64,000 bases of DNA from Candidatus Hydrogenedentota bacterium (GTDB lineage Bacteria; Hydrogenedentota; Hydrogenedentia; Hydrogenedentales; SLHB01). Both the position numbers and the translations under genes were made by a program. Below are positions 16,363 to 40,989 of this stretch, in pieces. The DNA lies in the NCBI GenBank assembly GCA_045863295.1, contig BTWA01000008.1, forward strand, positions 59,674-123,673, given 5' to 3'. Within the stretch, counting starts at the first letter, position 1; every line of letters starts with the position of its first letter. The notes under the pieces are model-generated. The model did not search any database. It was not told the DNA's origin and saw only the letters and a list, made by a program, of their open reading frames with translations.

Positions 16363-19300
16363 CTACTCTCTTTCGAATCCTTGGCTGGTGAACTTCAACG
16401 TCCGCCCGTTCTCTGTCACCGTTCTAACTACGTTCTCAGGTGCGCCGGATTGAAATTGTGCTTCTATTTCAAGTGTCACGGTGACATCTGCGCCCACCAG
16501 GCCTGCCAAATGCGCGATCACCTCGTCTGCAACCCGGCTTGCGTCGCGCCCAACACGGGCGGGATCCAGCACCACGGTGCCGTGATATCGCTTTGGCCTG
16601 ACTTGAATGGGGGCAGGGGACGCACCCGCGTTTCCAGAATCGCCGCCTGTAGACGGGACTTGAGCATCTCCCGCAACCACTCCCGATTCGCCAGTTGCCG
16701 GGTCCGCTTGGGCTTTGCTGGTCTCCGCCTCCAACTGCTTGCGCGCGACATCCGGCTTGACCAACAGTCCCGGTGCATCCGCGCCAGCCGTGAAAATGGA
16801 TTGTCCCCCGCGCAGACCTCGATAGCGATGCAATTCCTCATCATAAGTGTCCGCAAAGGCGAACGCGTCGTGCTCCCACGTGAGCAACGAGACACCTTCG
16901 TTGACCGCGCCCAAAAGGACGTTCGTATCCCGCAACCGCGGCAGGTAGATGTACCGTGCAAAATCTTCCGCCAACTGCTGCACCGAAACGTGTTCGCCCC
17001 GCCACAACGGTATCTTGTCCAAATCCATCCGTAGCCGCGTCGCCGCCAGTTTGGTCACCAACAGTTCCTCGTGCTTGAGCTTCTTGCTCGCGCGGATAGC
17101 CAGCGGATCCTGCCCGGTCACACGAATGGCATTCCAATGCACCGGGTCCTGGGGCTTGGGTTGCTCAGGAACCAAAAGCCACTGATAGGTTTCCGGAAGC
17201 CTCGCCGTTACCGCGCCATCAGCAGCCGATCTCTGCGTCTCCGCCTGCTTCACCTGGAAGGGCGTCAAACCAAGTTCGGTACGTTCAGTAAGAATGGAAT
17301 CCCAGGCCAGGTACCGTCTGACCGCTTCGTCCAAATCCTGCAGGCGCGTCTTGTCAGCCGCCAGGAACACCAGCGCATTGCGATAAAGGCGTGGGCTGTT
17401 GCCACGCGCCTCCAGCATGGACTTGGCGGCCGCGTCGGCGGAGTTCCCCGCATCCTTGGTGTACGGGTGATCCGGACCTAACACGACCAACCGCGCATCC
17501 ACGTCGTCCGGCACTTCCTGACCAGTCGCAGGCATGGCGTGCACACGGTTAAAGTCGCCCCGTTGTTCGAGGTCCCTCCTGAGCCGCTTCTCCATTTCCT
17601 GCACAACCTTGTCCGATTCGCGCTTCAATTGTTCTGCTCGATCCTCCGCCAACTTCGTGACCGTGGGCTGCGTGGAATACCAATACCTCGGCCCATCCTG
17701 ATACAGATACGTCGCAGCACCGGCCAGCCTGCGCAATGCATCTCCGAACACCGCAGGCGATTCGCCCGGCATCACGCACCCCAATTTCACCCGGCGATCT
17801 TCGATCCCCAAATGCGCAGCGCCGGCCATCGGTGCCGACCCCAGGTAGATCGTCCGTGCCACGCGACGGCATGCGGCAAACTTGCCCAGGTTCGCGATCT
17901 CACCGTCCAGTCGCAGCGGCAACGAATTGGGGCCATCCACATCCTTGGCCAGCACAGGCACCCAGTTATCGGATAAATATCGAGTCAACTCGAATTGCAC
18001 GCGCGAGTCGTCGATGGCAATGTTGGCAGGCAGTATCAAGGGATTCCGGTCGCCCTTCTCCCACAAGCTATGGATCACCGCTGCCATGAGCCGCAGCACG
18101 CCGCGCGTACGTTGAAACTTTATCAACGTCGACCAATCCGTATACAGACGGTCGAATATCTCTGGATGGATCGGATAGGCCGCTTTGATCCGCTTCTCAT
18201 AGTCCGCATCGCGGCATTCGGGAGGAAATTCGGCCTGCTGTGTCCGATACAAGTCGGCAAATTCCCGCGCCACCACGTCCCTGTCCTTGAACTGCTGCGG
18301 ATCGGACATCGGCTCGAACAGGCGCCGCCGCACAATCTCAAAGCCTTCTTCCGCGCTGGCCGGCCGCCATGAAGACTCCACTCGACCGATAACATTCCGC
18401 AACCGGTCCAACGCTTCGCGCCCCCGCTGGCCGCCCACTTCCACGTCGTTGGCCTGCGTATGCGGCGAACCCGTCGTGTCCGATGCGGGCAGGCTGATTA
18501 CCAAGAGACAGTTCTTCGCCAACTTGGCCGATTCCGTCAACACCTGCGCAAACGTGAATTGCGTTTCAAAACTGCCCGCGGGGAGGTCGCTCTGATCGTG
18601 CAACTGCCGCGCATAGGCCACCCACTCATCAATGAGGATCAGGCACGGTCCGTATTCATTGAACATCTCTCGCAGTACATCGCCCGGACTTGTCGCCCTC
18701 TCGTCATCAGCCTTGATGCGCGCGAAGGCCTTCTTGCCCCCTAACTGCCAAGCCAATTCACCCCAGAGCGTGTGCACCACAGTCCCGTCCGCCTTGGTGG
18801 AGGGATTACCCGGCGAGATCTTATTGCCCACCAGCACGGCCCGGCGCACGGACGGCAGCGTATCCGCCGCCGCGCCTTTCATTACGGTGTCGACGCCGGA
18901 CAGTTCGGCGGGACTAATGCCGGAAAATAGGTGATACAGCGCCAGCATGGAGTGCGTCTTGCCGCCGCCGAAGTTCGTCTGCAACTGCACCACCGGGTCG
19001 CCGCCCCCGGCAGTCAACCGTTGCACCGCACCCGTCAGCATGCTCTTTAGGCTCTCGGTCACAAAGGTCCGCCGGAAGAATTCCACCGGATCCTTGTATT
19101 CCGCCGTTCCTTCCCCAACGTGCACCTGCCACAAGTCTGCCGCGAACTCCGCTTGTTGATAGCGCCCGCTGGCCACATCCTTGTGTGGGGTCACCACCTC
19201 GCGCCAGGGTTTCAAATGGCCCGTGGCCGCGCTTTCGATGGCCGTGCCCGAACTCTTCCGCTTTTCGCTTCGTACTTGCTCGTCGAAGCGGAGCCGCAAC

Positions 19301-19716
19301 AGCTCCATCTTCATTCGCTCAATATCTTCCGCTTGCGGCGCGGAAACGGACACCAGCAGCCGCGAAACCGAATCAAGCACACGATACGCATCATCGCTGG
19401 AAAAATTGGCCTGGTGCGCCCACTTGTTGCGCGCGTCTCGAAGTTCGCTCACCATCGACCGTTCAGCGTTCCCAAGCGTGTTCTTGAAAACCAGATTCCA
19501 CTGGTTCCACATCACGCCCAACAATGAAGCGGCATCCCAAGGTGGTTGCTCTTCATCCTTGAAAAGTTTGGCTTGCGAAGGCCCCACGGCGGCCTTTACC
19601 TCGTCGAACCAGGTTTGTTGATGCTGCGCCTTGAGTTCCCGCTCCACAAACGGCTGCAACCCCAGTGTAAGCAATTCCAGCCCCTTGCCGACCCGGTCTC
19701 GATTAGTTATTGCCAT
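16363..19716 (-). CDS. Swt1-type HEPN + DUF499 AAA+ ATPase
   Basis: RNKWAH (Rx4H); LKPWREVVTPH; EFAADLWQV; Walker A FGGGKTH; Walker B LILIDE. Confidence 0.9.
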   Translation of the reverse strand: MAITNRDRVGKGLELLTLGLQPFVERELKAQHQQTWFDEVKAAVGPSQAKLFKDEEQPPWDAASLLGVMWNQWNLVFKNTLGNAERSMVSELRDARNKWAHQANFSSDDAYRVLDSVSRLLVSVSAPQAEDIERMKMELLRLRFDEQVRSEKRKSSGTAIESAATGHLKPWREVVTPHKDVASGRYQQAEFAADLWQVHVGEGTAEYKDPVEFFRRTFVTESLKSMLTGAVQRLTAGGGDPVVQLQTNFGGGKTHSMLALYHLFSGISPAELSGVDTVMKGAAADTLPSVRRAVLVGNKISPGNPSTKADGTVVHTLWGELAWQLGGKKAFARIKADDERATSPGDVLREMFNEYGPCLILIDEWVAYARQLHDQSDLPAGSFETQFTFAQVLTESAKLAKNCLLVISLPASDTTGSPHTQANDVEVGGQRGREALDRLRNVIGRVESSWRPASAEEGFEIVRRRLFEPMSDPQQFKDRDVVAREFADLYRTQQAEFPPECRDADYEKRIKAAYPIHPEIFDRLYTDWSTLIKFQRTRGVLRLMAAVIHSLWEKGDRNPLILPANIAIDDSRVQFELTRYLSDNWVPVLAKDVDGPNSLPLRLDGEIANLGKFAACRRVARTIYLGSAPMAGAAHLGIEDRRVKLGCVMPGESPAVFGDALRRLAGAATYLYQDGPRYWYSTQPTVTKLAEDRAEQLKRESDKVVQEMEKRLRRDLEQRGDFNRVHAMPATGQEVPDDVDARLVVLGPDHPYTKDAGNSADAAAKSMLEARGNSPRLYRNALVFLAADKTRLQDLDEAVRRYLAWDSILTERTELGLTPFQVKQAETQRSAADGAVTARLPETYQWLLVPEQPKPQDPVHWNAIRVTGQDPLAIRASKKLKHEELLVTKLAATRLRMDLDKIPLWRGEHVSVQQLAEDFARYIYLPRLRDTNVLLGAVNEGVSLLTWEHDAFAFADTYDEELHRYRGLRGGQSIFTAGADAPGLLVKPDVARKQLEAETSKAQADPATGESGVVAGDAQVPSTGGDSGNAGASPAPIQVRPKRYHGTVVLDPARVGRDASRVADEVIAHLAGLVGADVTVTLEIEAQFQSGAPENVVRTVTENGRTLKFTSQGFERE

Positions 19717-19912: not shown

Positions 19913-20254
19913 CTAACTACTACGCCCTAACTTCTTCAATCGCGACTGAATCGCCGACGGCTGGCGGCCAAAATGAGCGGCCATGTCCTTGACACTTTTG
20001 CCCTCGCCCCAAAGCAACTCCAGATCCCGATCCTCCTCATCGCTCCAAGGCTCATACGCCCGCGGATGCTTTGCCTTAATCTCCGCCAGACGTTCCGCAT
20101 AGTCCGGCTTGGCCTTGTCAGCCAGCGTCAACGCCTCCGCAGCCGCATCGAAGATGTCCTTGTACGTATACCCCGGGTGCAACGCTAATATCTGCCCATA
20201 ATCCCGCCCCTCGGCGATAAGCTGCAGAATCACTTTTGCTTTCTCGCTCAGCAT
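19913..20254 (-). CDS. Small HTH protein (DUF433-like N-terminus, Myb-like C-terminus)
   Basis: HPGYTYKDIFDAAAEAL; RAYEPWSDEED...MAAHFGRQPSAIQSRL. Confidence 0.75.
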   Translation of the reverse strand: MLSEKAKVILQLIAEGRDYGQILALHPGYTYKDIFDAAAEALTLADKAKPDYAERLAEIKAKHPRAYEPWSDEEDRDLELLWGEGKSVKDMAAHFGRQPSAIQSRLKKLGRSS

Positions 20255-20293
20255 TCATGGTCCCCTTGCCAAGACCGCGACTCTTGATGGCAA

Positions 20294-21337
20294 TTAGCTA
20301 AGCAACGCTTTACGCCAATCGCTCTTGCTATAGTCTTTGGCATCGCCTTTATCCGGTCCTAGGTGCCAATTGATATCTTTTTCGCTCTTATCCACGAGTC
20401 GACAGTATCGCCCCTTGATATCGGTCGATTCGTTTCTTCCTACCACATGAACAGTCGCACGTGTATGGCCCCAGTATTTGCGCGCCCAATCCCAGTCCGT
20501 ATCCGGTGCCGACCAGCCGACAAAGTAGATCTCCTCGGCATTTCGGGATACATCAAATAGACGTTCGTGAACTCTCTGTAGTGAAGTCAGTGCCGCCCAC
20601 TCCGTCGGACGTTGTTTCATCCCAGGCGGCACCATCAGAAAATGCAGATCGCTGTGCAGATGCGGGCACCTGCCATGGCCGGTGTGCTTTTCGCGGCCGG
20701 TCCCCCAATTGGCCGGCAAGTGCGGGTCCGGCTTGTCAAACTTCACGGTCACGGTATTGCAGACATCGAACGGGAGATCACAAACTAACCAGTTCAGCGA
20801 TCCATTCGGCTTGAGGAGATTTACCCCAGGAGGCCGGCCTTCATTGACATAAAGCACTTCCTTCGATCCCAGACAGTATTCAGGCAGAGCACCAACCGCC
20901 ATGATCGCCTGATCCAAAAGCAAGTCATAGTTGAATGTACAGACTTCGATATCGGGCGTATTCAACAGGTCACGTGCAAATCGTTGATATAGACAGCACC
21001 ACAAACACTCTCGTTCCGCCTGGTCCTCTGACTGCATCACAAGTTCAAGACCACGGATGAATACTCGGGAAAATCGCTTCAGCTCGAATGTACTGTGCCC
21101 ACTCATTCGAATCAGTGTGTCACCGTAGACTTCCACGTTGGCGTCCACCGATTCCCAATCCAGGAAGGTGTCGTGCGCCGCTTTGGCTTCTGGAATGTCT
21201 ATGCCATGAATAGACCATGTGTGCGATTTGTGCCAAGGCAACTTTTTGAATCGGCAGAGGATGCCGCTCATCGCCGGAATACCCATGGGACACGAGAACC
21301 CCGCGCCCAACACCACCAGCTTCTTTGGATAACTCAT
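20294..21337 (-). CDS. SIR2-like protein
   Basis: VVLGAGFS..MGIP, TFNYDLLLD, KPNGSLNW, FVGWS. Confidence 0.8.
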   Translation of the reverse strand: MSYPKKLVVLGAGFSCPMGIPAMSGILCRFKKLPWHKSHTWSIHGIDIPEAKAAHDTFLDWESVDANVEVYGDTLIRMSGHSTFELKRFSRVFIRGLELVMQSEDQAERECLWCCLYQRFARDLLNTPDIEVCTFNYDLLLDQAIMAVGALPEYCLGSKEVLYVNEGRPPGVNLLKPNGSLNWLVCDLPFDVCNTVTVKFDKPDPHLPANWGTGREKHTGHGRCPHLHSDLHFLMVPPGMKQRPTEWAALTSLQRVHERLFDVSRNAEEIYFVGWSAPDTDWDWARKYWGHTRATVHVVGRNESTDIKGRYCRLVDKSEKDINWHLGPDKGDAKDYSKSDWRKALLS

Positions 21338-21367: not shown

Positions 21368-21510
21368 AACCACAGATGGACACAGATTAACACGGATAAG
21401 ACAGTCGAACGGGAACAGCCCTGGTCTATCAGGCGGGCCACACTCCTCCTTTTTTCTCTCATAATTCAATCTTCCCATCTGTGTGAATCTGTGTTCATCT
21501 GTGGTTCAAT
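21368..21510. repeat. REP-like hairpin element with 30-bp decamer arms
   Basis: 21368-21397 and 21477-21506 are inverted, 27/30 match. Confidence 0.85.
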
Positions 21511-21522
21511 TCTTATCCCTGT

Positions 21523-21894
21523 TTACAGTGAAACCCGCTTCCATTCCAGCTTCGCTCTTTTGAAATTGATGATTAGTCCCGTCTTTAACCCCGCAATCTT
21601 CAGGTAATTCAGCATCTGCCCCAACTCGTGGTCGCCGATTCGCTCTATTACTTTGGCATCCACAATTACCGCGTCTTGTACCACCAAATCCGGGACATAC
21701 GCGCCCACCGTCTTCCCCTTGTACACCACATCGTATGTGCATTGCTGGAGGGCCGACAGTCCGCGAAGCCCCAGTTCCACCACAAGCGCGTTCTCGTACG
21801 GCTTTTCCAACAGGCCGTGGCCTAAAGTATTCAGCACCTCCATCGCCGCCCCGATGATGGCCTCCGTCACGCTACTGTTCGGTGCGCCGCTCAA
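21523..21894 (-). CDS. GxxExxY protein (PD-(D/E)XK-like)
   Basis: LGHGLLEKPYENAL, PDLVV..AVIVDAK, QMLNYLK..G...GLIINF; likely TTG start at 21894. Confidence 0.9.
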   Translation of the reverse strand: MSGAPNSSVTEAIIGAAMEVLNTLGHGLLEKPYENALVVELGLRGLSALQQCTYDVVYKGKTVGAYVPDLVVQDAVIVDAKVIERIGDHELGQMLNYLKIAGLKTGLIINFKRAKLEWKRVSL

Positions 21895-21915
21895 GCGACA
21901 TCCCCTGAGAGTTTT

Positions 21916-22045
21916 AACCACAGATGAACACAGATGCACACGGATAAGAGCAGGGCCGAGGCTTCGGCCGTTAGCCGGTAGCCGGTAGCCATCTTTCCTC
22001 ACTTCTCTCTCCTCTTTTCTCTCTTCTTCCCATCTGTGGTTCAAT
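21916..22045. repeat. Second REP-like element, right arm shortened by two decamers
   Basis: Arm at 21916-21945; ends CTTCCCATCTGTGGTTCAAT like the 21368 copy. Confidence 0.8.
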
Positions 22046-25000
22046 CACAATTCCAAATCCCCCTGCTCGGGCGTAATCACCCGCTGTTCCCGTGCCAGGC
22101 GCACGATTTCCGGCCAGCTTTGTACCAAGGCGTTGTACGACAGGGCCTCGGCCGATCGTTTTTTGCGCTCGCACAGTGTGTACAGCCGGTACGCCAATTC
22201 CCGGGCCGTTTCCGCCTTGGCCCCTAGCTTGCCTGCGAGTGCGGCCGCGGCCGATTCGCCGCCCCCTTCCAGTACGCGAATAAGGTGGTGCACGGTCTCC
22301 CATACTGTCAGGCGGGTATCCGTGGCCGGGTCCCAGCTCTCGGGCAGTTCCGACGGTTTAAACAACCGCACTTTGCCCTTGCCGGCCTTCAGGATGCCCG
22401 CCTCCACCATGCCGTTCACGCTGGTGTTTTTCGACTTCGACAATTGCTCCGCCACGCCGTACTCGCCTTCCGCGAATCCAAACTGATCGAACCACGCCAA
22501 AGCCCAGCGTGTGTCGGGATCGAAATCGCCTTCCTGTTCGGCGAGGGCTTCATCCAACGTCTGATTGATGAGGGCCAAGGCCTCGCGCACCGTCAGCGGT
22601 TTGCCTTCCGCGTCGAGCACTTTCGCGAATCGCGTATACACGGCCATGCCCGGGCCAATCGCCGCCTGGGCCAAATCCACAGGGGCGATGTTGCCGCGCT
22701 GTAAGTGAAGAAGGGCAGCAGGCAGTTCGGCTTTGAGGGCATTCAGAAATTCGCGCCGCGTGGCGGTCGGCGCCTCTTTCGAACGTGGACGACCCACGAG
22801 CACTATGCTGGAGGCCAGGGCGTTGGTGCCGGACCCAATCATGCGGTTGCTGAGTTCGGTCCGCATGGGCCACGTGCCGCTTATGGCAAACCCCGCTTCG
22901 ATAACCGCCGCCAGGAACGTATCCCAACCCGTGCTGGCGGTACCATCGATTGCGTCGCTCTCGGCTTGCTTGAAAGCATAGTAGATGGTGACGGGGAAAG
23001 CTGGATGCGCCTGTTCGGCGAGACGGCTCATGGCCTGTGTCATGCCATTGAGAAAAAAAGTCTCAGCTTTTTGTTTATTGCCATGGCGATAAGGGGTAGC
23101 AACAAGTTCTTGGGCCTTGGGCACTGCCAACGTGGAGAAATCTTCCGCAAAAGCTGGCTTAAGGGAGCGACGTAGCCAAACATAGAAGAAGTCGGCAAGA
23201 TCAGCATAACCAATATTATCGTAATAAGGCGGGTCTGTAGAAACTACACGATCAGCCGATATAGTTTGAGCCTGCGCATCAGCCTGTTGTGCATACCCAT
23301 GTGGAGACTCTGGAAATGCGCAAATGGCTTTTTTCGCCCATTCAACTCCGCTGGATACGTTGCCCGAAGAATCGGAGAAAATGTTTGTTTCAACGTAGTC
23401 CCACGTCATAGGAATAGCTTGGCGACCAAAAGTATTTCGAATAAGTTCCTTACTCGAATGCCACGTGCAGATCGTTGACCAGTAGTCAGCTGCTTTGTCA
23501 ATGGTAAACGCCAAATACACCGCCACGGCGTCGGCGTAGTCCTGGGCGGTGGGTATGGGTGGGGCGCCTTTGGCGGGTTTGGGGGCGTGTTCGGGGAAAC
23601 CCGCCGCGAGGGCATCCTGCTTCACCCGTACCCGCGCCTCCTGCACCAAATCCGAAAACGTCGTCAACGCCACCAACTGCCGTGGCGTGAACAGGTCGCC
23701 GAACGTGGTGAGGCCGTAATTAGGTGTCTTGAAGTCACGTGGATTGACAGGCAAGGCCAAATCTGGCTTCCATGTTGGCCGTGCCTTGAGAGCGATAGCT
23801 TCCATCTGTGAAGTTGGCGAAAGATATATACGCCCATTCTCACCTTCCGCCACAATAGCCATTAGCCTTGCGCCCATAAAACCCGTCTTGCCTTGATCCC
23901 GAATGTGATCATACGTAACAGGCACGCCTGACATCAGGCAACGAAATGCTGCGCGTTTGCCGGCTGTGGTACCTAGTCTGGCGGCCTCCGCATCCTTTGG
24001 CTTCCCCACTTTGACCGTGAATCGGTAACCGCCGTTTTCTATCACCGGTTCCACGTAGGCTTCCTTGCCCACCTTGGTGGACAGCATAAAGGTTGAGGCC
24101 AAGGGTACATCGACATCCGCATACGCTGGGTTGGGGCTCTTGACGGTGCGCGCCCAAAGCCAGGCGATGACGGTAAGTTCTTTAGCGGTTAGGACGGAGG
24201 ACTTAGGATATAGGGGGACTTTGTCGTGGGGGTTTTTGGCCCAGTAGGTATCGACTTCTTCGCGGGTATAGTAGCGGCTCTTAGCCGGGTCAAAATAGAC
24301 TTTGGCCTTGGGGTATAGGTGGCCAATGCGCTTCTCGGCTTCGTCGCGCATCCATTGACCGTAGTAGCGGACATCGGCGGCGAGTCCGGCTGCGCCTTTC
24401 CATTCTCTAGCGAATAGCAATTGGGAGTTAGGATTTAGGGGGGAGGAGGCAGTCGATTCTAGCGATTCTCGCGAAACTTGCGCCGAAGCGTGCTGAGCAT
24501 CTTGCCCACTTCCACGATCAGACTCCGCGCCACGCTTGTTTCCGTGACTTGCATCCATCCGATCTCCTCGCAAAGCGTGAGAAACGTCTCCGTCTCCGCC
24601 AGGGAACCTTGCGCTATGGCCAGAAACTGAGCCCGCTCCTTTTCGGATTCTCTTGTCCATCCCTCCGCGATGTTGGCTGGCACTGACGCTGCCGCCCGTG
24701 TGATCTGCGAACGCATCCCGTACATTTCTTCCTTGGGAAGATGCGCTACCAGACGATAGACCTCTTTTGCCAGGTCCATCGATTTCCTCCATACCATCAG
24801 TTCTCGATAGTGAAGTCCCATCGCCCCCCCTAAGTTCTAAGTCCTCACCACTTTCTTCCCTACTATGTCCTAAATCCTCTGTTCTACTCGCTCCATTGAC
24901 GGGCGGTTGCCCGGCAAACCGCGGCGGTATCTCGATCATCGCCTTGTTAATCAGCACAGCAACCGGATTCAGATCGCTCGCGTAGGCTTCCAGTCCGAGG

Positions 25001-25452
25001 CGTTGGGCTTCGAGAGGGAGTGCGCCGCCACCGGCAAAGGGGTCGTGGAAAGCGGGGAGTTTGTAACGGTCGAAGAGTTCCTTGGCGCGAGGGTGGTCGG
25101 CGTTCTCGGCGCAGGCGCGGCGCCAGCTTTGCCAGATTTCCTCGCGGGCCTGCTGGAGCACGGCCTCGTTTGTGGTGTTCTCCCATTTGACGAGTTCTTC
25201 AATAATCTTGAACAGGCGCTGCCGTTCCTTGTTCTGCGCCTTTTCCGTGGGGAACAGGTCGGGCCATGCGGAAGGGTCGTCAACCATTTGCGCAAAGATG
25301 ACGGCCCGCGCCGCCGCCAAAGGCCGCCGCGCCCACCAGAGGTGCAACGTGGAAGGATGCCCGTGTCGAATAGACTTCTCCCGCGCGGAAGCCACGTTGA
25401 TCGCTTCCAAAGGCAGGGCCACTTCAATGAGTTTCTTGCGGATCTTGGTCAT
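22045..25452 (-). CDS. DUF1156 amino-methyltransferase with an in-frame insertion of about 154 aa
   Basis: [26 protein letters not shown] (motif I), TDPPYYD (motif IV); alternative start at 25479. Confidence 0.9.
24190..24886. repeat. Nested inverted repeats built from TCCTAA-like heptamers
   Basis: Inner pair 24424-24443 / 24825-24844 (17/20); outer pair 24190-24213 / 24863-24886 (20/24). Confidence 0.75.
24459..24821 (-). CDS. Four-helix-bundle protein (23S rRNA IVS / bAvd-like), nested in the methyltransferase in the +1 frame
   Basis: [18 protein letters not shown]...[26 protein letters not shown]...[14 protein letters not shown]. Confidence 0.92.
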
Positions 25453-25510
25453 ATAACCCACACTTTCAAAACCCCCCATTTCCTAAATCCTATCTTCTAC
25501 CTTCTACCTA

Positions 25511-26089
25511 CTAGTATTCCAAGCTCCATGAAGTATCGATGACGCGGGGCAACCCTTTGCGCTCGATGGCACGCAAACACTCGCGCAGGGCTTCCGTCAC
25601 GTTTTCGGGCACGGGGTCCTTGGGGAAACCACCCGCGATCCGGAAGATATCCGGAGCTGGCACGACGGTCTCCAGGATTGCCATCGCAGAGGCGTCGAAC
25701 AGGATAATCGTGGCAACGGGATTCCGCGCATAACGCGGGGTGGTGACCCAGCCCATCCGGTCACCGGCCCTGAGCCGCCACAAGTTGGGCGCGTCCATGG
25801 GCGCATCGGGCACAGGCGGCGCATTGGCACCGGCGGCATTGTAATTATTAACCCACCGCATACCCAGCAAATTGGACATTTCCGTTGGGTGGAGTTCGAC
25901 CCAGGAGGGTAAATCGAAAGAGCGACTGGTCACTGTCACATAGTCGCCGTCGCGTGTGTACCATGCATCATGCAGACCCCAAGCGGGGGGCTCGTAGATG
26001 GCCGATGTCAGCCGGAACCAGCCCAGCAAATCTCCGGCCCGGCATGACAGGCGTTGTGTCTGGTCAATATCAAAAGTGATTTCTACCAT
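25511..26089 (-). CDS. Hypothetical protein (192 aa)
   Basis: Same strand as the locus; its 5' end is duplicated at 28738-28872. Confidence 0.65.
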   Translation of the reverse strand: MVEITFDIDQTQRLSCRAGDLLGWFRLTSAIYEPPAWGLHDAWYTRDGDYVTVTSRSFDLPSWVELHPTEMSNLLGMRWVNNYNAAGANAPPVPDAPMDAPNLWRLRAGDRMGWVTTPRYARNPVATIILFDASAMAILETVVPAPDIFRIAGGFPKDPVPENVTEALRECLRAIERKGLPRVIDTSWSLEY

Positions 26090-26173
26090 AAATTATCGCT
26101 CGAAGATGTTGGGTGCCCCAAGTCTTCAGTCGGTATCACATGCATGGCGCGCGACCTGTTTGCTACAAGGACT

Positions 26174-27196
26174 TTATCGTCGGCCTATCACTTCAGTCTC
26201 TTGACCAGCAGCCGCTTTTTTCTCTGACCGCGCGAGTATTTCGTTCGCAAGAGACTTAAAGTCTAGATAGCATTTCGACACCGCCGCGGCATGGGCTCCA
26301 ATTGCTCCATCCGCAGGCGACAATTTGAAAACCGGTTTTCGAGCATCTTCCGCGAGCGGCATCAGGCTTTGGTAGTTCTTAATGAATCCAATCCGATTAG
26401 GGTCGGCCTCGACATTCACCTCAGTGATTGGCTTACGCAGGACATGGGTTGTGTAAACTTGGGGAATCTTGGAAACCCAACGTTGGTAGGCTTTGACAGG
26501 ACGATTCCTTCGCTCAACATGCTGCATGACGACATAACCCGCAGGCGTCATGGAGCCGGACGGCATTGGTATGTTTAGATCTTCAGGCTTCTCATCCAAC
26601 ATTTTTTGCCAATGCTTTCTCCAAGCATCAATGGTTGGGCCGAGGTTCTTCAAACCCTGCAGAGAGAACAGCCCCGGCGCAAGCGGCATTACGATATTAT
26701 CGGATGCAATCAAAGATGCCCGATTGATAGCGCCGAGATTGGGTCCAACATCCATCAGAATAACATCGGCGTCTAAAGATTCCGCTGCATGGTGAACAAT
26801 GCGGTAAAAAGCGGTCGTTGTGCGAAACGCACCTACATCTCCCATAAAACATTTGGGCCACGCCTCGGAGAGTTTGTCCTCGAATCGGGACAGACCCAGG
26901 TCTCCTGGGAGAAGAAATAGATTTGCATTTAGCTTCTGCAATGGAGCAACAGCAATATCCCCCGTGTTTTCGATAAGCGGAGAAATGCAGGCCAAAATGC
27001 TTTTGTTCTCGCCTTCTTCCGGCCATAAGTCTATCAAAGTGTCGTCATCGAGAAACATGCTTGTGAGATTGGCTTGGGGGTCCAAATCAACCGCGAGGAC
27101 CTTTTTGCCTAGTTCGGAACACATCCATGCGAGGTGATATACAAGAGTGGTTTTACCAACGCCGCCCTTGTTATTGAAGAAGGCGATGGTTTTCAT
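26174..27196 (-). CDS. ParA-family ATPase
   Basis: FNNKGGVGKTT, VDLDPQANLT, MDVGPNLG. Confidence 0.9.
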   Translation of the reverse strand: MKTIAFFNNKGGVGKTTLVYHLAWMCSELGKKVLAVDLDPQANLTSMFLDDDTLIDLWPEEGENKSILACISPLIENTGDIAVAPLQKLNANLFLLPGDLGLSRFEDKLSEAWPKCFMGDVGAFRTTTAFYRIVHHAAESLDADVILMDVGPNLGAINRASLIASDNIVMPLAPGLFSLQGLKNLGPTIDAWRKHWQKMLDEKPEDLNIPMPSGSMTPAGYVVMQHVERRNRPVKAYQRWVSKIPQVYTTHVLRKPITEVNVEADPNRIGFIKNYQSLMPLAEDARKPVFKLSPADGAIGAHAAAVSKCYLDFKSLANEILARSEKKAAAGQETEVIGRR

Positions 27197-28386
27197 CTGA
27201 GGATTCCCTTGATAGTGGCCAGAAAATGAGCTGGCTCATTAATATTAAACTCAGCGGGTGGGTTACCGTTCTCCTTCAATGCGTTTTGGGCGCGGACGAT
27301 TCCCCTGCCGAATTGATTTACGTATCCCAGGACCTTCATGGCCTCGGCAATCTTTGGATTGCGGTAGTCATTCTGGTTGGGAAAGGTTTGAGGCGTGACG
27401 GAACCGTAGAGCCCGCCGGGATTTTGAATTTCGATGCGGTCACTGAACCGGTATAAGCGAATGGGCGAATTGGACTGGTAATCGCGGTGCATCACAGCAT
27501 TCATTAGAAGTTCTCGTATAGCTGTCGCGGGATACGGTGTCCGGCTAATTTCTTTTAGAGTCGACACTGATTCCGGATACATGGGGATCATGGTTTTTAC
27601 AAAACTATCCAATTCACGAAGCAGGTTTATTAGATCGCCTTCAAATCGTCGTTCATCGAGCACTTCTGATTCAAGACCTTCACCTTCAAAATGCACGTAT
27701 TGAATAGCGGCCCCTGGAATCCAATTCAATGTATCATGGGCGAATAGAATCGCTCCTGCATTTGTGGCGCATTTATCTTTGGTTGACCACAAACCTAAAG
27801 ACGCCATCTGTAGGAGCATATCTCGATTGTTTTCCTCGATAAGCTCTGGCGCGATTGCAGCACTACGGTAAGTAAGTTGGAACAGGTCAAGTGCAAGCTC
27901 ATTCTCGTCGCATCCCTTGCATGGCATGAGGTCGAAAGTTCGGGCGTGTGATGTTCGACGTTCGGTTAGAATTCGCTCATCCTGTTCTCCCGCGATCGCT
28001 TTACGCGGCCCGCGACGTATCCAGACTTGTCCCTTATAACGGACAGGAGGAATATCTGAAGGCCTCACTTCGACGACGGCAAGGTCTCCTTCTGGCAATG
28101 AGACCCTTTCCACTACCATGGAAGGCAATGGTACGATTTGCCCGGAATCCGCGTGGCTGGCAAGATTACGCAAGAGTTCGTCCGAGACATTGACACCCGT
28201 GATGGTTCCGGTCGAATCGCTCGCGCCGATGATCAGATAGCCTGGAAGATTATTTCCTGGCATGTCGTTTGCAAATGCGCATATGGCCTCGCAAAACTTG
28301 CGGCTGTCCGTTGTCGAAGTAGTTCGTTCGACCCGGGCAGACTCCATGTCTGCCAGCAAGTTCCTTAGTTCTGTCTCGTTGATCAT
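27193..28386 (-). CDS. AlbA_2 (Schlafen-like) + RecG-C/HATPase-like protein
   Basis: ESARVER, ICAFAND, YLIIGASD, RELLMNAVMHRDY, NPGGL, YRNPKIA; ATGA overlap with parA. Confidence 0.85.
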   Translation of the reverse strand: MINETELRNLLADMESARVERTTSTTDSRKFCEAICAFANDMPGNNLPGYLIIGASDSTGTITGVNVSDELLRNLASHADSGQIVPLPSMVVERVSLPEGDLAVVEVRPSDIPPVRYKGQVWIRRGPRKAIAGEQDERILTERRTSHARTFDLMPCKGCDENELALDLFQLTYRSAAIAPELIEENNRDMLLQMASLGLWSTKDKCATNAGAILFAHDTLNWIPGAAIQYVHFEGEGLESEVLDERRFEGDLINLLRELDSFVKTMIPMYPESVSTLKEISRTPYPATAIRELLMNAVMHRDYQSNSPIRLYRFSDRIEIQNPGGLYGSVTPQTFPNQNDYRNPKIAEAMKVLGYVNQFGRGIVRAQNALKENGNPPAEFNINEPAHFLATIKGILR

Positions 28387-28733
28387 TTGCCGCCTTCGGT
28401 TATGCCTGGCAGGGGACTCTCCAACTGAGTGGCCATGCAGGCAGTATGTAGCCGTAGACTATCAAATTCGTGCGCGATAATCTCGCTAGAATTGAGTTTC
28501 TGCCGTAAATTGCTCCTTTTGGGCCACATACCGGCACTGTTGGCAAGATATTGCATGAAGCGGACATTGCGCTGATTGGGGTTGAAGTCGACTAGCAGAT
28601 TGGATATGTCGGACTTGACAGACGTATTGTGTTGAAATGGAGGTACAAACAGTGTTGATGGACGGTGCCTTTTTTATGTGTGTGAGAAACTTGGACATCT
28701 CAATTCACGGTGTGCGTGGCAATCCGTAAGCAA

Positions 28734-28862
28734 CTACGCATCATGCCAAGCCCAAACGGGTGGCTCGTAGATGGCCGATGTCAGCCGGAACCAGCCCAGC
28801 AAATCCCCGGCCCGGCATGACAGGCGCTGTGTCTGGCCAGTATCAAAAGTGATTTCTACCAT
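28734..28862 (-). pseudogene. 42-codon truncated copy of the 25511..26089 gene
   Basis: 135-bp direct repeat (28738-28872 vs 25965-26099, about 11 mismatches); reads MVEITFDTGQTQRLS...WHDA then stop. Confidence 0.8.
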
Positions 28863-28913
28863 AAGTTGTCGCCTTGTAGGAACCCGACTAGTTTGATTGG
28901 CTAGGCTTACCCC

Positions 28914-29993
28914 CTACCCTTCGTTTCGCAGCCATAGTACGAGTAGCAGCCAAAATACGGCAAACAAGAGCCAAAGTATCACAAGCAGTAGTAATCTGAC
29001 TTGTTCTTCATAAGGAGTATACCTGTTTAAATCATCGCCCGAATTGTGTTGTATGTGGCTTGGATTCATTCTGGATCCTGGAATTGCGGACACGTCTCGC
29101 AACAGTTCCAGAAGTGAATGCACGGGTACATAGGCGCCGCGTCGTCGAATTTCTCTCGCGCAGATTTGACCAACGTCGGGGACTCTTTTTTGCAATATGA
29201 TGCACAGGATGATGTCGAGCAGTATGTTCCGGAAAAGTGGAGCAACGGAGACCGATAGTGCGGAGCATGGAATGAGAAACAGGACCGCCGCGAAGGAAAG
29301 CATATTCAGCACGACAAGCAAGAAGACGCATAGTATGAAGCAGATGGAAACCGTATATGCCCAGAGTTCAGCAATGACCCAGTGTGCACGGCCGACCTCC
29401 GGGTAAGCCCGTTCTTGAATCCGTGAAACGACCGGGTCCACAGTTTCTTTGCTTTCTTCGGCAAAAGGGGCATGGGGTTCTTGCGCCAAACGGCCGGATA
29501 TCTTCGTGGCTTCCGCCTCACCTTGCGACTCGGGAAGAGTTACTCGTTGGACTCCGCGGGCGAACAGGGCATACAAGGGCATATTCGCTTGATGGTATGC
29601 CTGATTCTTGTGTTGATGTTCCGACTTGGCAGTAGAATAGAAGCCTCGTTTGATTCGATCCAACTCGACTTCTCGATTGTGATTTGTCGATCCCCTCCGT
29701 TTGCGATTCCTTTCCTCATTGACCGATATGTTCGCACGAGTATCGGTGTTCTCCGAATACCGTTCGTCGTCAAGGTCGACCTTTGTCGCCCCAGAGCCAC
29801 CTGTGTAAGCCCAACCGGATTCGACCAAATGGTTGAGCGTTCTGACATCAAATTTATCTCCAACTTTTAGTCCTCGCTCTTTAATAAGGTAGTTGATTCC
29901 CTCTTCCTCAAGCTGAAAGGTGCACATATACCCGCCAACATTGGATCGAATGTAATAGCCTCGGCCATCGCGATACCTATTAAAGGTAGGCAT
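28914..29993 (-). CDS. Hypothetical membrane protein
   Basis: 359 aa with three hydrophobic segments in the C-terminal half. Confidence 0.65.
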   Translation of the reverse strand: MPTFNRYRDGRGYYIRSNVGGYMCTFQLEEEGINYLIKERGLKVGDKFDVRTLNHLVESGWAYTGGSGATKVDLDDERYSENTDTRANISVNEERNRKRRGSTNHNREVELDRIKRGFYSTAKSEHQHKNQAYHQANMPLYALFARGVQRVTLPESQGEAEATKISGRLAQEPHAPFAEESKETVDPVVSRIQERAYPEVGRAHWVIAELWAYTVSICFILCVFLLVVLNMLSFAAVLFLIPCSALSVSVAPLFRNILLDIILCIILQKRVPDVGQICAREIRRRGAYVPVHSLLELLRDVSAIPGSRMNPSHIQHNSGDDLNRYTPYEEQVRLLLLVILWLLFAVFWLLLVLWLRNEG

Positions 29994-36815: not shown

Positions 36816-39800
36816 CCAGGCGGCTCCGCGCGAGTGATTAGGTCTGCAAAGTCATAGTTGACACTCGTCACCCCGAAATCCGGTTCCCTCTTGAAGGGTT
36901 CACGGATGTAGTGCACACGATGGGTGTCATTGTCGATGAACTCAACAATGGCCAGGACGTAATCCTCCGGCTTGTTCAGCGAATACAAAATCTCATTGCG
37001 GGTGACCGTGATGGTTGAAGCGCCGGACACCCTTCCTTTTACTTCAAGGAAACGAAGTTTGCCGTTACCTATCACTCGACTTTCGATATCGTATCCGAGC
37101 TTTTCCAGTTCCCTGTCCGTCGGTTCGTGGCCCAAGCTTCGCTCAACATCCATGATGATGGAACGGGCACGGGCGGCACTTGCTTGCGTATCGACCGCAT
37201 GCAGGAGTTTCGATGCCTCCTTGCCCATCATCTTATCGATTAACCCGATGGGTACAATGAGCATTCCACCTAATACAACCGGCGGCAGCGGGGAAATCTG
37301 GGCCTCTAGCTTGAGCTCCTCCAACCGCTTCTGGAGGCGAGCCTGCAAACCATCGGCGCGCTTTCGCGCTTCATCGGAATTCAGCCGGGCGTTTGGTTTT
37401 CCGGCTTGCTCTTGATGCTTGAGTTCATTGGCACGATGATCCCAGAAGGTTACTTCCTTTGTCAGCCGCGCTTTGACAGCCGCTTCGATCTTCATGATGA
37501 GTTCAAGCCTGGGTACGCGCACCTCGCTTAGATGCTCGGGCACCACATCCGCAATAGCATGTTGCTGCGCTTTTTGCTCCAATGTCCGGTCAATCCACGC
37601 GGATTCCGGCCTTGCCAGGATTTCTTCCACGCCGGGTTCGTTTGCCTTGAGCGGCCGGAAATCCAGATAGGGCGCATAGTGGAGGTGTCTTGCCTCGCCG
37701 TTTGCTGAGTATTCAATGTAGAGCATTCGTTTGGAAATCACGCGCCGATCGCCAGAGTGCGTATGGCTCGCGTCTTGGATGGCATGCTCCAAGTAAAAAA
37801 TCACTCGGGGGTCTGTGCCCATGTCGCGCTCGTCGACTAGGATGGTCCCGCGTCGCAGGATATCCACACTCCGTTCAAGAGTCAGGTCTATGACGGCATC
37901 AAGCAGGGGATGCCCCGGACAAACAAATGCGGCAAGGGGTTGACCCTGCGGGGCGATGAGCGACTTTTCAAAAGCAATACGCTCATAACGCTGCAATACG
38001 GGCCCGCCAAGTCCAATCAGGCGATCCCGGTTAATGATGGGCGCCGGCACATGGGTTATCTCATGTCGCCTGGGTTCTCGTTGCTTGACCGATCCTCCTA
38101 AGCGTTTAAACGCTTCCTGGAAAAACGATTCAATATAGTGCGGTTGAAGTCTGCGCGCGTCGGCTCGCTCCATATCCTCCCGGATGCGCTGAACGCGGCT
38201 GAAGTCCATGGCATCTTGGACGAGAACTTTTTCCTCCAGGATGCCTCTCAGGTTCTGAATGTCGAAGGTATGATCCAAGACTGTGTTCAAGTACTCCTTG
38301 ATTTCGGGACTCTCGCCTTCGCGAATGGCCTGAATGAGGAGATCGCGCAACGACTTTCCTTCGAACTGAAGCTTTCCCAAAACATCGAAGACCTGTCCAC
38401 CGAGCGCCTTCCGTGCCTCCTCCAGTTTTTCCAGCAACTTTCGATACACATCCCCTTCGCGCGTCTCGTCGGCCACGAGGTTCCATAAGTGACAAACCTC
38501 AGTTTGACCAATTCGGTGGATACGGCCGAAACGTTGCTCAATGCGATTGGGATTCCACGGTAAGTCGTAGTTCACCATAAGGTGTGCACGCTGCAGGTTA
38601 ATTCCTTCACCTGCGGCATCGGTGGCAAGTAGCACCTGCACACTGGGATCGTGCCGGAATCGCTCTTGCGTGGTAAGCCGATCTTCGCGCCCCATAGCGC
38701 CGTGTATCACGACCACTGCCTCATGGCGGCCCAGCAGCGTCTCGATCTTGTTCTTGAGATAGTTCAAGGTGTCGCGATGCTCGGTGAAAATGACGAGCTT
38801 TTGGAGCGGGGAAGGTATGTGACCGGCGATGACGCCCGCACCATAAGGAGCCACTTCCTCCGATACCCGGACGGCAGAACCGCCGGTCTGGAAGATTTCA
38901 TTCAGCAGACTTGCCAATTCGCACCACTTGGTATCCGTGCCACTTTGCCGTACTTCAAGAGCAAGCGATTCCAGCCGCTTCAGAATTCCAATTTCAACCT
39001 TCAAATCGGAGATGGAGCGGGCTGCGGTGGCCTGGTCCAGAAACTTCTCTTCAGCCGCCTCCAACTCATTGTCTGGCGCATCCTCTAAGTCCTCCACATC
39101 TTCATCATCTAGAAGGAAACTAAGTTCAAACCTGACGCCCGTCTTTCCCCCTCGCTGCAATACCTCCAACTCCCTGAGGCTGCTCTCCAGGCGTTCCCGC
39201 CTGCGACGCAAAGACTGATAGATGGCTTCTGGAGACGATGCCAAACGCCGCTGCAAAATGGTGAGCGCAAAACCGACGGTCCCTGCCTGCTTTCCGTTTG
39301 CCAGTGCCTCGGCGCGATTGAACTCATCACGGACATATTCCGTCACTTCCTTGTAGAGTTGCGCCTCCTGATTGGACAGTTTGTAAGGGACGGTATACGC
39401 CATCCGGGGTGGAAAAAGCGGCTTACCGTCGAATTTCAGCAGCTTTTCCTTTACCATGCGTCGCATCAAATCAGATACGTCGACCACATGGGCCCCATCG
39501 CGAAAACGGCCCTCGAAGCGATCGCCGTCCAGCAGCGCCAAGAACAATTGAAAATCCGACTCCTTGCCATTGTGCGGGGTTGCTGTCATAAGCAAGAAGT
39601 GGCGCGTCAAGGTGGAAAGAAGCTGCCCCAGCCGATACCGTTTGGTGTACTTCGTCTCATTGCCAAACACGGTCGCGGACATTTTGTGGGCCTCATCACA
39701 CACCACGAGATCCCAGCGGCAATCTGGGGCTTGTAGCTTAAGCTGAATGTCTTCATTGCGGGACAGTTTGTCGAGCCGCGCAATTACAAAACGGGTCTCC

Positions 39801-40387
39801 AAAAACCAATTCCCGGTGCGGGCTGACTCCAGCTTGTCGTTGGTTAGGATTTCAAATGATAGATGGAAACGTTGATACAACTCGTCTTGCCATTGCTCCG
39901 CAAGACTGCCTGGACACACCACGAGGCACCGTTGCAGATCGCCCCGAGCCACCAGTTCCTTTATCAGCAGCCCTGCCATGATGGTTTTTCCAGCGCCAGG
40001 GTCATCGGCTAGGAGAAAGCGCAGCGGTTGGCGAGGCAGCATCGATTCATAGACGGCCGTAATTTGGTGGGGCAAGGGATCCACCTGGGAAGTATGCACA
40101 GCCAGCACCGGATCAAACAGGTGCGCCAGCCGTATTCGTTGGGCCTCGGAGACCAAGCGAAACAAGGAGCCGTCCCCATCAAAACTCCACGGGCGGCCCT
40201 GCTCCACAATTTCCAGCCGGGCTTCGTCATGCCGGTACAGCAATTCATTCGCGACCTTGCCGTTCGCGGACTTGTATGTCAGTTCCAGGGCTTCGGATCC
40301 AAACCACTGCACACTGACCACGGTAACAACGCCATCATTGGCAATTCCGCGCAAGGCGGCGTTGGGTTGCAGGTCTTCCAGTTTCAT
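36812..40387 (-). CDS. SNF2-family helicase with a C-terminal DUF3883 nuclease-like domain
   Basis: LLADDPGAGKT, DEAH, TATPH, QRFGRIHRIG; GYDIES...LEVKG. Confidence 0.93.
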   Translation of the reverse strand: MKLEDLQPNAALRGIANDGVVTVVSVQWFGSEALELTYKSANGKVANELLYRHDEARLEIVEQGRPWSFDGDGSLFRLVSEAQRIRLAHLFDPVLAVHTSQVDPLPHQITAVYESMLPRQPLRFLLADDPGAGKTIMAGLLIKELVARGDLQRCLVVCPGSLAEQWQDELYQRFHLSFEILTNDKLESARTGNWFLETRFVIARLDKLSRNEDIQLKLQAPDCRWDLVVCDEAHKMSATVFGNETKYTKRYRLGQLLSTLTRHFLLMTATPHNGKESDFQLFLALLDGDRFEGRFRDGAHVVDVSDLMRRMVKEKLLKFDGKPLFPPRMAYTVPYKLSNQEAQLYKEVTEYVRDEFNRAEALANGKQAGTVGFALTILQRRLASSPEAIYQSLRRRRERLESSLRELEVLQRGGKTGVRFELSFLLDDEDVEDLEDAPDNELEAAEEKFLDQATAARSISDLKVEIGILKRLESLALEVRQSGTDTKWCELASLLNEIFQTGGSAVRVSEEVAPYGAGVIAGHIPSPLQKLVIFTEHRDTLNYLKNKIETLLGRHEAVVVIHGAMGREDRLTTQERFRHDPSVQVLLATDAAGEGINLQRAHLMVNYDLPWNPNRIEQRFGRIHRIGQTEVCHLWNLVADETREGDVYRKLLEKLEEARKALGGQVFDVLGKLQFEGKSLRDLLIQAIREGESPEIKEYLNTVLDHTFDIQNLRGILEEKVLVQDAMDFSRVQRIREDMERADARRLQPHYIESFFQEAFKRLGGSVKQREPRRHEITHVPAPIINRDRLIGLGGPVLQRYERIAFEKSLIAPQGQPLAAFVCPGHPLLDAVIDLTLERSVDILRRGTILVDERDMGTDPRVIFYLEHAIQDASHTHSGDRRVISKRMLYIEYSANGEARHLHYAPYLDFRPLKANEPGVEEILARPESAWIDRTLEQKAQQHAIADVVPEHLSEVRVPRLELIMKIEAAVKARLTKEVTFWDHRANELKHQEQAGKPNARLNSDEARKRADGLQARLQKRLEELKLEAQISPLPPVVLGGMLIVPIGLIDKMMGKEASKLLHAVDTQASAARARSIIMDVERSLGHEPTDRELEKLGYDIESRVIGNGKLRFLEVKGRVSGASTITVTRNEILYSLNKPEDYVLAIVEFIDNDTHRVHYIREPFKREPDFGVTSVNYDFADLITRAEPPG

Positions 40388-40989
40388 GCTTCCGCTTCAC
40401 CCCGGTTGTGCCACGGCCGTGCAGGACGCCATTGGCCTCAAATCCAGTACTCTTCGGCTGAAATAGTAGTGCATATCTATGGACCTGACTTCAACCCATG
40501 AATCAACCCAGAATAGAAGCGAATACAGAAGAATTGAGGCATGTAGGCGCTTTCTTGCTTCGCCATGGGATATGGTTCCGGGCCACCCAGGATTCCCGGA
40601 TAATTAACCGAAATAGACTATCCATAAAGATGAATTGGAGTGTGTATTCGCTTTCGTAACGTCAAGCGCTTTCACCGTTTGCCGCAGGAAAAGCAACATG
40701 GTTATACCCGCCACCCCCTGCGGTCCGAGCAGGAACTGTAGGGCCTAACAACCGACGGCCGCAGCCATACGCTGAATTGATGCCTATGTAATGCAATTCT
40801 TGTCGATTTATCAGCTTCTTTTGTCAAACAGTCAATGCATGAAATTTGTTGAACGTTAAGTGAAAGCATCGAATGTTTGCGAGTTCAAGTGGATTCGATA
40901 GGAAACACGTTCAAATGTCCTGTTGTTAAACTTGAGATACCTGCATTGTTGCCCATTCAGTTCGCTGTTTGGACATGGCGATTGGCTTC

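Follow-up and report, generated by a model that had tools for sequence, protein, structure and literature searches.

A gene cassette of the 23S rRNA intervening-sequence type nested in an open frame of the hmaB methylase gene of a Candidatus Hydrogenedentota bacterium

Introduction

Intervening sequences (IVSs) that bear an open reading frame (ORF) interrupt bacterial 23S rRNA, where they are bordered by complementary stems and excised by RNase III, as described in PMC4990558. According to the same source, the helix-45 IVS of Coxiella burnetii, which carries an S23p gene, is 428 nt long, and its ORF is decaying and apparently untranslated in vivo. Rickettsia palindromic elements (RPEs) are selfish DNA of another kind: they are palindromic, lie in frame in coding genes, and are translated within the host protein in a manner judged compatible with its fold (PMC10969869, citing Ogata et al. 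2000, 2002). They measure about 150 bp and, in the same account, encode only a conserved peptide that is part of the host protein (PMC10969869). The known in-frame elements (RPEs) are gene-less and the known IVSs lie in rRNA, whereas the cassette described here carries a complete four-helix-bundle (4HB) gene of the IVS protein family and lies inside a protein-coding gene, hmaB, which encodes the DUF1156 N6-adenine methylase of an Hma defense system. It is found in a stretch of 64,000 nt of contig BTWA01000008.1 (assembly GCA_045863295.1) of a Candidatus Hydrogenedentota bacterium; this whole stretch is called the window, and all positions refer to it.

The 23S rRNA IVSs (Coxiella burnetii; relatives in Leptospira, Brucella, and Xanthomonas) are the nearest relatives of the cassette. 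Shared features are the PF05635/S23p protein family, the size (428 nt compared to about 460 to 484 nt for the cassette), and complementary borders that close a long stem. Unlike these IVSs, the cassette sits in a protein-coding ORF, without any rRNA match in Rfam at 24200-25100; it is dual-coding, with a second frame kept open and a length that is a multiple of 3, and it is probably tolerated by read-through and not by RNase III excision. Furthermore, the ORF of the Coxiella IVS is reported to be decaying, whereas the nested 4HB copies are under purifying selection. The nearest functional analogues are the RPEs and intragenic miniature inverted-repeat transposable elements, since the cassette, too, is a palindromic element in a coding sequence with the host frame preserved. 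However, such elements are short (about 100 to 150 bp) and without a gene, whereas the cassette holds a complete gene for 120 amino acids within its about 460 to 484 nt. Its DNA encodes two products, with a start of its own for the 4HB protein, and its arms are arrays of 7-base words.

The 4HB fold is homologous to that of Avd, the accessory variability determinant of diversity-generating retroelements, and a relationship between the S23p/IVS proteins and Avd is noted in PMC10053308. The nested protein matches the Avd models only weakly and below their cut-offs (bAvd PF22296, 1.1e-05, 26.3 versus 40 bits; NF033474, 6.4e-09, 36.1 versus 80 bits), and a reading as Avd in a diversity-generating retroelement was therefore set aside. 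The genome has two RVT_1 (reverse transcriptase) matches, on contigs C53 and C7 and not on that of the cassette; no search for template/variable repeats was made. Inteins are selfish elements that are translated in the host frame, splice from the protein, and recur at the same site in homologous genes. The cassette resembles them in its location inside protein-coding genes, in the proposed host-frame translation, and in its recurrence at one site; unlike an intein, its in-frame product is a low-complexity loop without a recognizable domain, and the conserved protein is encoded in another frame. Since the whole host protein, loop included, yielded no further Pfam family beyond the methylase matches and the conserved product lies out of the host frame, an intein was rejected. 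An intron was rejected because no Rfam family, self-splicing introns and rRNA included, matches 24200-25100 at E values up to 1. A literature search whose coverage is short on subscription journals returned no description of a PF05635 gene nested in a coding sequence.

With this arrangement, a gene-carrying selfish element could reside in coding genes that stay intact: 360 bases serve both for a conserved protein and, in a second frame, for what would be a harmless spacer, and selection maintains this state across many phyla. The long-unexplained S23p/IVS family thereby gains a new and experimentally easier setting, that of defense genes, which laboratory strains can express.

Anatomy of the cassette

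The host gene hmaB (22045..25479, minus strand) was identified by its ORF, Pfam, and PADLOC as the methylase of an Hma system, also called a type-1 DUF499-centered BREX-related system; this name and an HmaB-type methylase are given in a 2026 paper (PMC12839542). Its product of 1,144 amino acids has the DUF1156 domain at residues 21-92 (2.1e-32) and a weak D12-methylase match at residues 134-184, and the PADLOC HmaB model matches it with 1,490 bits in two stretches, the best of which covers residues 357-1134. In an alignment of 48 family members that includes the window gene, the columns D146-P147-F148..G150-G152 (motif I) and D749-P750-P751-Y752 (DPPY) are invariant, and the window protein keeps every column that is invariant across the family; it is therefore predicted to be a functional methylase. 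The N-terminal DUF1156 domain, the methylase core motifs, and the genes for a DUF499 ATPase and an SNF2 helicase in the window place it in the HmaB class. With only 104 bits against a cut-off of 1,000 in the NCBIfam model NF042963, it is no member of that particular equivalog.

Host homology (tblastn) ends at residue 197 (..PPVNGASR) and resumes at residue 352 (LLFAREWKG..), with a gap of 462 nt (154 codons) in frame and without a stop. Alignment and tblastn place this insert at 24427..24888 on the minus strand. The original prediction, made from the sequence of the window, had claimed an interruption of this length between these two peptides, a methylase frame without stops, and an intact 4HB gene for 120 amino acids in the +1 frame of the same strand; each of these claims was borne out. 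Indeed, hmaB is one single frame from 22045 to 25479, insert included, with no internal stop. In an alignment of 14 HmaB proteins, about 154 residues between ..PPVN(P/G)xSR and ..LFxRxWKG.. are absent in 6 and present in the window protein and 7 database proteins. Since 112 of the 142 HmaB orthologs compared are without it, the segment is not a normal shared domain, as the original prediction requires. The insertion place is a variable linker of HmaB just past the conserved stretch that follows the S-adenosylmethionine-binding motif.

Extended to the outermost inverted repeat (GCGAGTAG ... CTATTCGC, coding strand), the whole cassette spans 24409..24892 on the minus strand, as judged from the fold and motif matches. 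Its ends are uncertain by about 10 nt each, because the outer codons overlap residues resembling the native linker; the outermost arm codons mimic native linker residues (ESR.. / ..LFxR). Terminal motif matches lie at 24875-24891 (minus strand) and 24410-24426 (plus strand), and the same terminal words delimit the cassettes in an hmaA helicase gene (L009) and in type IIG genes (L077 and L082). The 5' arm (24822..24892, minus strand) is purine-rich, consists of the 7-base periodic words GGATTTA, GGACTTA, and GAACTTA, has no host-frame stop, and terminates in a run of seven Gs 2 nt ahead of the 4HB ATG; from its place and composition, this run is likely the ribosome-binding site. The pyrimidine-rich 3' arm (24409..24458, minus strand; CCCCCC TAAATCC TAACTCC .. 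CTATTCGCT) is its complement, as seen in the fold, the inverted repeats, and the arm sequences. Outside the 4HB gene, the two arms have 0 stops in the host frame compared to 3 and 6 in the other two sense frames.

Pairing of the arms is evident at several places. The inner pair (I1) joins 24424..24443 with 24825..24844, the latter of which holds the G run before the 4HB start; both are 20 nt long and complementary at 17 of 20 positions (85%), exactly as had been predicted, and the pairing extends further outward than was then noted. A second pair (I3) is a perfect match of 10 nt (24430-24439 with 24869-24878), and an outer pair, AGCGAGUAG (24884-24892) with CUAUUCGCU (24409-24417), closes the minimum-energy fold. 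The fold of 24395-24905 (minus strand) has −188 kcal/mol (z of −3.3), and none of 100 shuffled sequences folded equally well. Duplex z scores of the 100-nt flanks against mononucleotide shuffles ranged from +2.4 to −11 over the loci (−1.7 for the window), which is a poor test, since host sequence is included and shuffled purine/pyrimidine arms still pair; arm pairing was therefore judged by explicit inverted repeats, the full fold, and the arm sequences. The types of arm words vary by cassette lineage (GGACTTA-, AGGAAAT-, GGAGTGA-, or GAGAAAC-like); nonetheless, the two arms are complementary.

Between the arms lies the 4HB gene (24459..24821, minus strand; 120 amino acids), in the +1 frame relative to the host; that is, the host frame is the sense frame that begins one base before each 4HB codon. 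The protein covers positions 1-105 of the 106 of PF05635 (1.1e-36, 125.7 bits, cut-off 33.8), matches TIGR02436 with 124 bits (2.9e-36, cut-off 24), and resembles the solved chain 2gsc_A of Xanthomonas (2.9e-20). A match over the full domain above the curated cut-offs makes it a member of PF05635 and TIGR02436, the 23S-rRNA-IVS protein or S23p family. In nearly all loci surveyed (see below), the 4HB ATG lies a few bases past a G-rich stretch; this ATG and the purifying selection described below suggest that the 4HB protein is presumably translated separately.

Four DNA sequencing runs offered short pieces only; difference-free pieces cover parts of the insert in all four, and no excision polymorphism was seen. 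A look for RNA runs that contain 24100-25200 returned none. Contigs that skip 511 to 554 nt were considered as empty-site alleles of this strain and rejected, because they derive from other, uninserted hmaB genes with 85 to 95% likeness. Uninserted linkers might be scars of lost cassettes; the sole uninserted hmaB examined as DNA (L055) has an unrelated linker.

The host frame is kept open in related cassettes

To place the cassette among its relatives, the 4HB protein was searched against one genome per species (185,579 species). This confirmed 421 relatives, the best 80 of which were analyzed; these come from more than a dozen phyla, with 48 to 82% identity, and most of the loci are from metagenome bins. 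A locus was called nested solely on the basis of host homology on both sides of the 4HB gene; an earlier definition by ORF length was dropped as circular for the question of openness. By this definition, 38 of the best 80 loci and the window, 39 in total, are nested. Their hosts are hmaB in 31 cases (always at the same site, window included), the hmaA helicase gene in 6, and Eco57I/MmeI-type (type IIG/DrmMI-like) methylase genes in 2. L009 and L082 were the sources of the hmaA and IIG flank queries, and these two were themselves called nested from Pfam domains that flank the cassette in one ORF. Five further loci have a single flank, owing to contig ends or truncated hosts, and 38 have no recognized host. 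Since the search started from a defense-borne copy, the choice of seed biases the host families found.

Of the 39 two-flank loci, 37 have host anchors separated by a multiple of 3, flanks in one frame, and no stop in between. Hence, host frames are not usually broken by similar insertions, as the original prediction had it. The insert lengths of the in-frame loci take many different values from 399 to 654 nt. The relative frame of the 4HB gene is constant across the two-flank loci, save L020, in which the upstream host frame is shifted, and the cassette has the orientation of its host in 39 of 39.

A count of stops across the entire insert covered 38 loci (L038, whose 4HB coordinates are cut by a stop, was omitted). 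The sense host frame had 3 stops and was open in 37 loci. The second and third sense frames had 101 and 303 stops, and antisense frames 1 and 2 had 181 and 143; none of these four was open in any locus. Antisense frame 3, with 124 stops, was open in 4. The same holds for the arms alone: pooled over the loci (4,434 nt), they contain 1 stop in the host frame versus 64 and 112 in the other two sense frames. We take the uniform orientation and the openness of only this orientation and frame as a sign that the cassette relies on transcription of its host and that insertions of other kinds are purged.

Is the openness a by-product of the 4HB protein sequence? As a control, synonymous codons were permuted within each 4HB gene 1,000 times, with protein and codon counts kept, and host-frame stops were counted. 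In the both-flank class (38 loci; L047 was left out because of an N in the aligned stretch), 0 stops were seen versus 61.1 expected, and all 38 loci were open versus 7.6 expected. The 5 one-flank loci had 0 stops (9.3 expected) and were all open (0.5 expected). In the 38 loci without a recognized host, 85 stops were seen versus 124.1 expected, and 10 were open versus 2.4 expected; thus, the frame that corresponds to the host frame is not commonly open in free-standing relatives. The control and the free-standing copies therefore gave the outcome that the original prediction had anticipated. For the window gene by itself, the host frame is open in 4.25% of 2,000 synonymous shuffles, with 2.4 stops expected. 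The surveyed loci are related and their counts are not independent trials; still, 44% of the third codon positions differ in close pairs, which gave each lineage ample chance to gain stops.

Selection on the nested protein and the predicted loop

The same DNA of 32 nested copies was compared in both frames. Mean amino acid identity is 0.716 in the 4HB frame versus 0.408 in the host frame, and the former exceeds the latter in 496 of 496 pairs. Furthermore, in 53 nested pairs whose 4HB identity is 80% or more, the differences per site amount to 0.149, 0.103, and 0.44 at 4HB codon positions 1, 2, and 3, respectively. The concentration of substitutions at third positions indicates selection on the 4HB protein, with the host frame merely kept open; from this pattern, the host-frame peptide appears free to vary provided that it contains no stop. 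Its composition is dominated by Gly (20%), Ala (12.5%), Asp (11%), Arg (9.5%), and Ser (9%). In an AlphaFold model based on 48 sequences, residues 204-356 are nearly all coil with a predicted local distance difference test score (pLDDT) below 50 and block means mostly near 25; a 4-residue helix at 337-340 is the only secondary structure in the modeled loop. No solved structure matches HmaB by sequence.

In two loci, L048 (hmaA host) and L038 (hmaB host), a stop lies within the aligned 4HB stretch, yet the host frame runs open through the cassette (over 740 and 475 codons, respectively). The passenger can therefore decay while the host frame is preserved.

Mobility of the cassette

A FastTree tree was built from the HmaB region that follows the insert, with the columns of the insert itself removed; it has 30 inserted and 112 uninserted rows, the latter of which are biased toward relatives of the window gene. 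On this tree, the inserted state requires at least 9 changes, 7 of which are forced by well-supported branches, and the window hmaB falls into a supported group of 16 whose other 15 members are uninserted. For 20 full-length inserted loci (190 non-independent pairs), identity of the 4HB protein is not correlated with that of the C-terminal 380 amino acids (rho = 0.12) or the N-terminal 180 amino acids of the host (rho = −0.05), whereas the two host parts are correlated with each other (rho = 0.40). These conserved host parts replaced a first comparison on the 260 amino acids after the insert, probably a variable target-recognition region. The history of the cassette is hence decoupled from that of the host gene, which argues for mobility.

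Cassettes in hmaA point in the same direction. They occupy at least two places on the 4HB tree, which is weakly resolved (6 of 71 branches well supported) and too poor for counting host switches. Moreover, hmaA has two cassette sites about 15 to 20 codons apart, with the conserved LDYRPL motif between them: the insert of L009 follows ..LDYRPLTDAERETF.., and those of L026, L031, L033, L035, and L055 precede ..YAPYLDYRPL... The cassette of L009 has the 4HB type and the GCGAGTAGGAC.. arm type in common with hmaB-borne cassettes such as that of the window. Together, the sequences suggest exchange of the cassette between alleles and its occasional relocation to new genes; possible routes are microhomology-guided insertion, allele-to-allele recombination, and swapping of cassettes via their arms. 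It is imaginable that such cassettes form a class of their own, made up of dual-coding genes that propagate themselves and spread over many phyla. As a relative of the nucleic-acid-binding Avd, the 4HB protein would then be a mobility or maintenance factor of the cassette and the arms of 7-base words would be recombination sites; the cassette would actively home into the hmaB linker, jump between large genes, and settle in rRNA helices, intergenic gaps, or protein loops by virtue of self-folding arms and one frame that is stop-free by design. We offer this extension only tentatively and regard it as rather doubtful.

Several loci of the survey show other placements. In L074 (2397-3506), a cassette lies in frame behind the Fer2/Fer2_2 [2Fe-2S] domains of a metabolic protein, and the hosts are thus not confined to defense genes. 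L010 has a close 4HB relative between genes, and in L071, one of the loci without a recognized host, the 4HB domain is at the start of a hydrolase ORF. A truncated DUF1156 N terminus and a 4HB domain share one frame in L066 (1510-3300), next to an ORF for an ABC-transporter ATPase; this is probably a rearranged remnant of an hmaB-borne cassette. Among HmaB homologs, P0055 (1,324 amino acids) has the 4HB cassette, an IS200-like Y1 transposase domain (PF01797) in the host frame, and a further short insert; with the transposase domain, this methylase apparently tolerates a mobile gene of a second kind in its frame. P0028, seen at the protein level only, has two extra in-frame inserts (EIGNRKQEIGNRK..., then ...SYFLSSISY). 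By their sequence, these look like a pair of arms from a 7-base-word hairpin that lacks the 4HB gene in its middle, and they resemble gutted cassettes.

Model and alternatives

In our model, which we consider likely, a gene cassette of the 23S-rRNA-IVS type (purine-rich arm, 4HB gene, and complementary pyrimidine-rich arm) landed in the linker of HmaB and is mobile. Ribosomes on hmaB would read straight through the stop-free frame of the cassette, and the product would be a full-length methylase with an extra loop of roughly 155 residues, rich in glycine, serine, and acidic residues and probably disordered. The 4HB protein would be made separately from its own ATG with the G-rich ribosome-binding site in the 5' arm. 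Since no promoter is evident within the cassette and its direction is that of the host in every case, it is probably carried on the host transcript. The paired arms would hide the 4HB start, and ribosomes in the host frame would open them, which might couple the two translation events. Over evolution, the cassette or its 4HB core would have been swapped between hmaB alleles at the same site and would also have moved into hmaA and other large genes. Of the three fates offered by the original prediction, only translation as a loop explains the avoidance of stops, whereas RNA excision and ribosomal bypass would remove selection against stops and for lengths divisible by 3; read-through is therefore favored. 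The broader claim of the prediction, that an IVS-like mobile unit resides in protein genes and does not kill them, is supported by the frame, the recurrence, and the decoupled histories.

A number of points weigh against this model. Two of the 39 nested loci (L007 and L020) have frame breaks beside the cassette, which could be true decay or assembly errors of metagenome bins. The free-standing relatives are mildly depleted of stops, too, and part of the openness thus travels with the cassette and is not maintained site by site; this depletion also fits with some of the copies being recently nested or in unrecognized hosts. The AlphaFold model is mediocre (mean pLDDT of 63, and less than 50 in parts of the methylase core, too), and therefore it does not show that the loop exits the fold at a harmless point. 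The conserved stem has no demonstrated role under read-through. The evidence for mobility comes from a tree made with FastTree only, a poorly resolved 4HB tree, and correlations of non-independent pairs. Finally, the Hma genes are scattered in the window, with hmaA 11 kb away and three extra genes separating hmaB and hmaC; the system may thus not act as a unit here, and the function of the window copy is not assured.

A first alternative is that the cassette has been domesticated as part of the defense system and that either the 4HB protein or the loop serves its host enzyme (methylase, helicase, or restriction enzyme) as a regulator or helper. Most identified hosts are indeed large defense enzymes (hmaB, hmaA, and type IIG), nested copies show purifying selection on the 4HB protein, and its relative Avd is an accessory protein of diversity-generating retroelements (PMC10053308). 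However, the preponderance of defense genes is what a defense-borne seed would favor, and close relatives are found between genes (L010) and in a metabolic gene (L074). In addition, 112 of 142 HmaB genes do without the cassette, the loop is poorly conserved in sequence, and L048 and L038 have a stop in the 4HB frame with the host frame open. We therefore consider domestication unlikely.

The complementary arms, which vary in sequence by locus and enclose the whole 4HB gene, recall the stems that border the ORF-bearing 23S rRNA IVSs and at which these are excised by RNase III (PMC4990558). By analogy, the insert could be removed or neutralized in the RNA of hmaB: RNase III would cut the stem, the halves would be re-joined or translated separately, and the host frame within the insert would be irrelevant. 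Neither an open frame nor a length divisible by 3 would then have any reason to persist, but both are kept in 37 of 39 loci, and none of about 61 expected stops was found. A cut without re-joining would leave an N-terminal piece without a stop codon and a C-terminal piece without a conserved start, and Rfam gave no family, self-splicing introns included, for 24200-25100 at E values up to 1. Removal at the RNA level is thus improbable.

It is also conceivable that hmaB of the window is dead or dying and that its open frame was inherited from a recently functional ancestor or is a matter of luck. The chance of 4.25% for an open frame over the window 4HB gene is not negligible, the Hma genes are dispersed among others, the gene caller split the gene, and some relatives are degraded (L007, L020, L015, L038, and L066). 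On the other hand, the frame of 1,144 amino acids is intact and retains all columns that are invariant in the 48 members, contigs of four other sequencing runs contain identical pieces of the insert, and the comparative pattern is one of long-term selection for open frames. A dying gene is accordingly a poor explanation to which we give little credence.

Least probable by far is a translational bypass, in which the ribosome would hop over the insert with the stem juxtaposing take-off and landing sites: the folded arms would bring the two host junctions close, but a hop of about 460 nt is far beyond the bypass of phage T4 gene 60, which spans roughly 50 nt, and no selection for open frames or lengths divisible by 3 would be expected.

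The surrounding Hma locus

The gene caller behind the protein database split the window hmaB and kept a C-terminal part of 791 amino acids (P0001). Gene callers that split or truncate such hosts may cause surveys of defense systems to score intact systems as broken.

The partner gene hmaC, a DUF499 ATPase gene with an N-terminal HEPN_Swt1 domain (Pfam; PADLOC HmaC, 1,169.8 bits), is located at 16363..19716 on the minus strand. The SNF2 helicase gene hmaA lies at about 36824..40438 on the minus strand, without a cassette; it was located by tblastn with the helicase parts of L009, to which it has 63% identity over 939 amino acids and 49% over 253 amino acids, with 91 nt between the two matches. 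The about 11 kb between hmaA and hmaB are filled by other defense-like genes: the region 25511-36815 encodes a ParA-like ATPase, an AlbA_2/HATPase_c_4 protein, a GmrSD-type nuclease, and a TmtA-like giant ATPase. Two further genes, one SIR2-like and one small and of the helix-turn-helix type, lie between hmaB and hmaC (19913-21337). The locus is a defense island nested within a defense system.

A GxxExxY/PD-(D/E)XK_3 gene (21523-22044, minus strand; TIGR04256, 2.1e-37) starts directly after the stop codon of hmaB. Hairpin-like repeats with CACAGAT/ATCTGTG words and purine-rich centers lie on both sides of it (21380-22047), and gene and repeats may be another small cassette that sits exactly between genes.

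Elsewhere in the genome, contigs C16 and C39 carry two more, divergent Hma-like loci with 27 to 37% identity to parts of the window HmaB and the L009 helicase. A second, distant 4HB copy (L002; C40:42737-43042) has 32% identity to that of the window and a TAG inside the family match.

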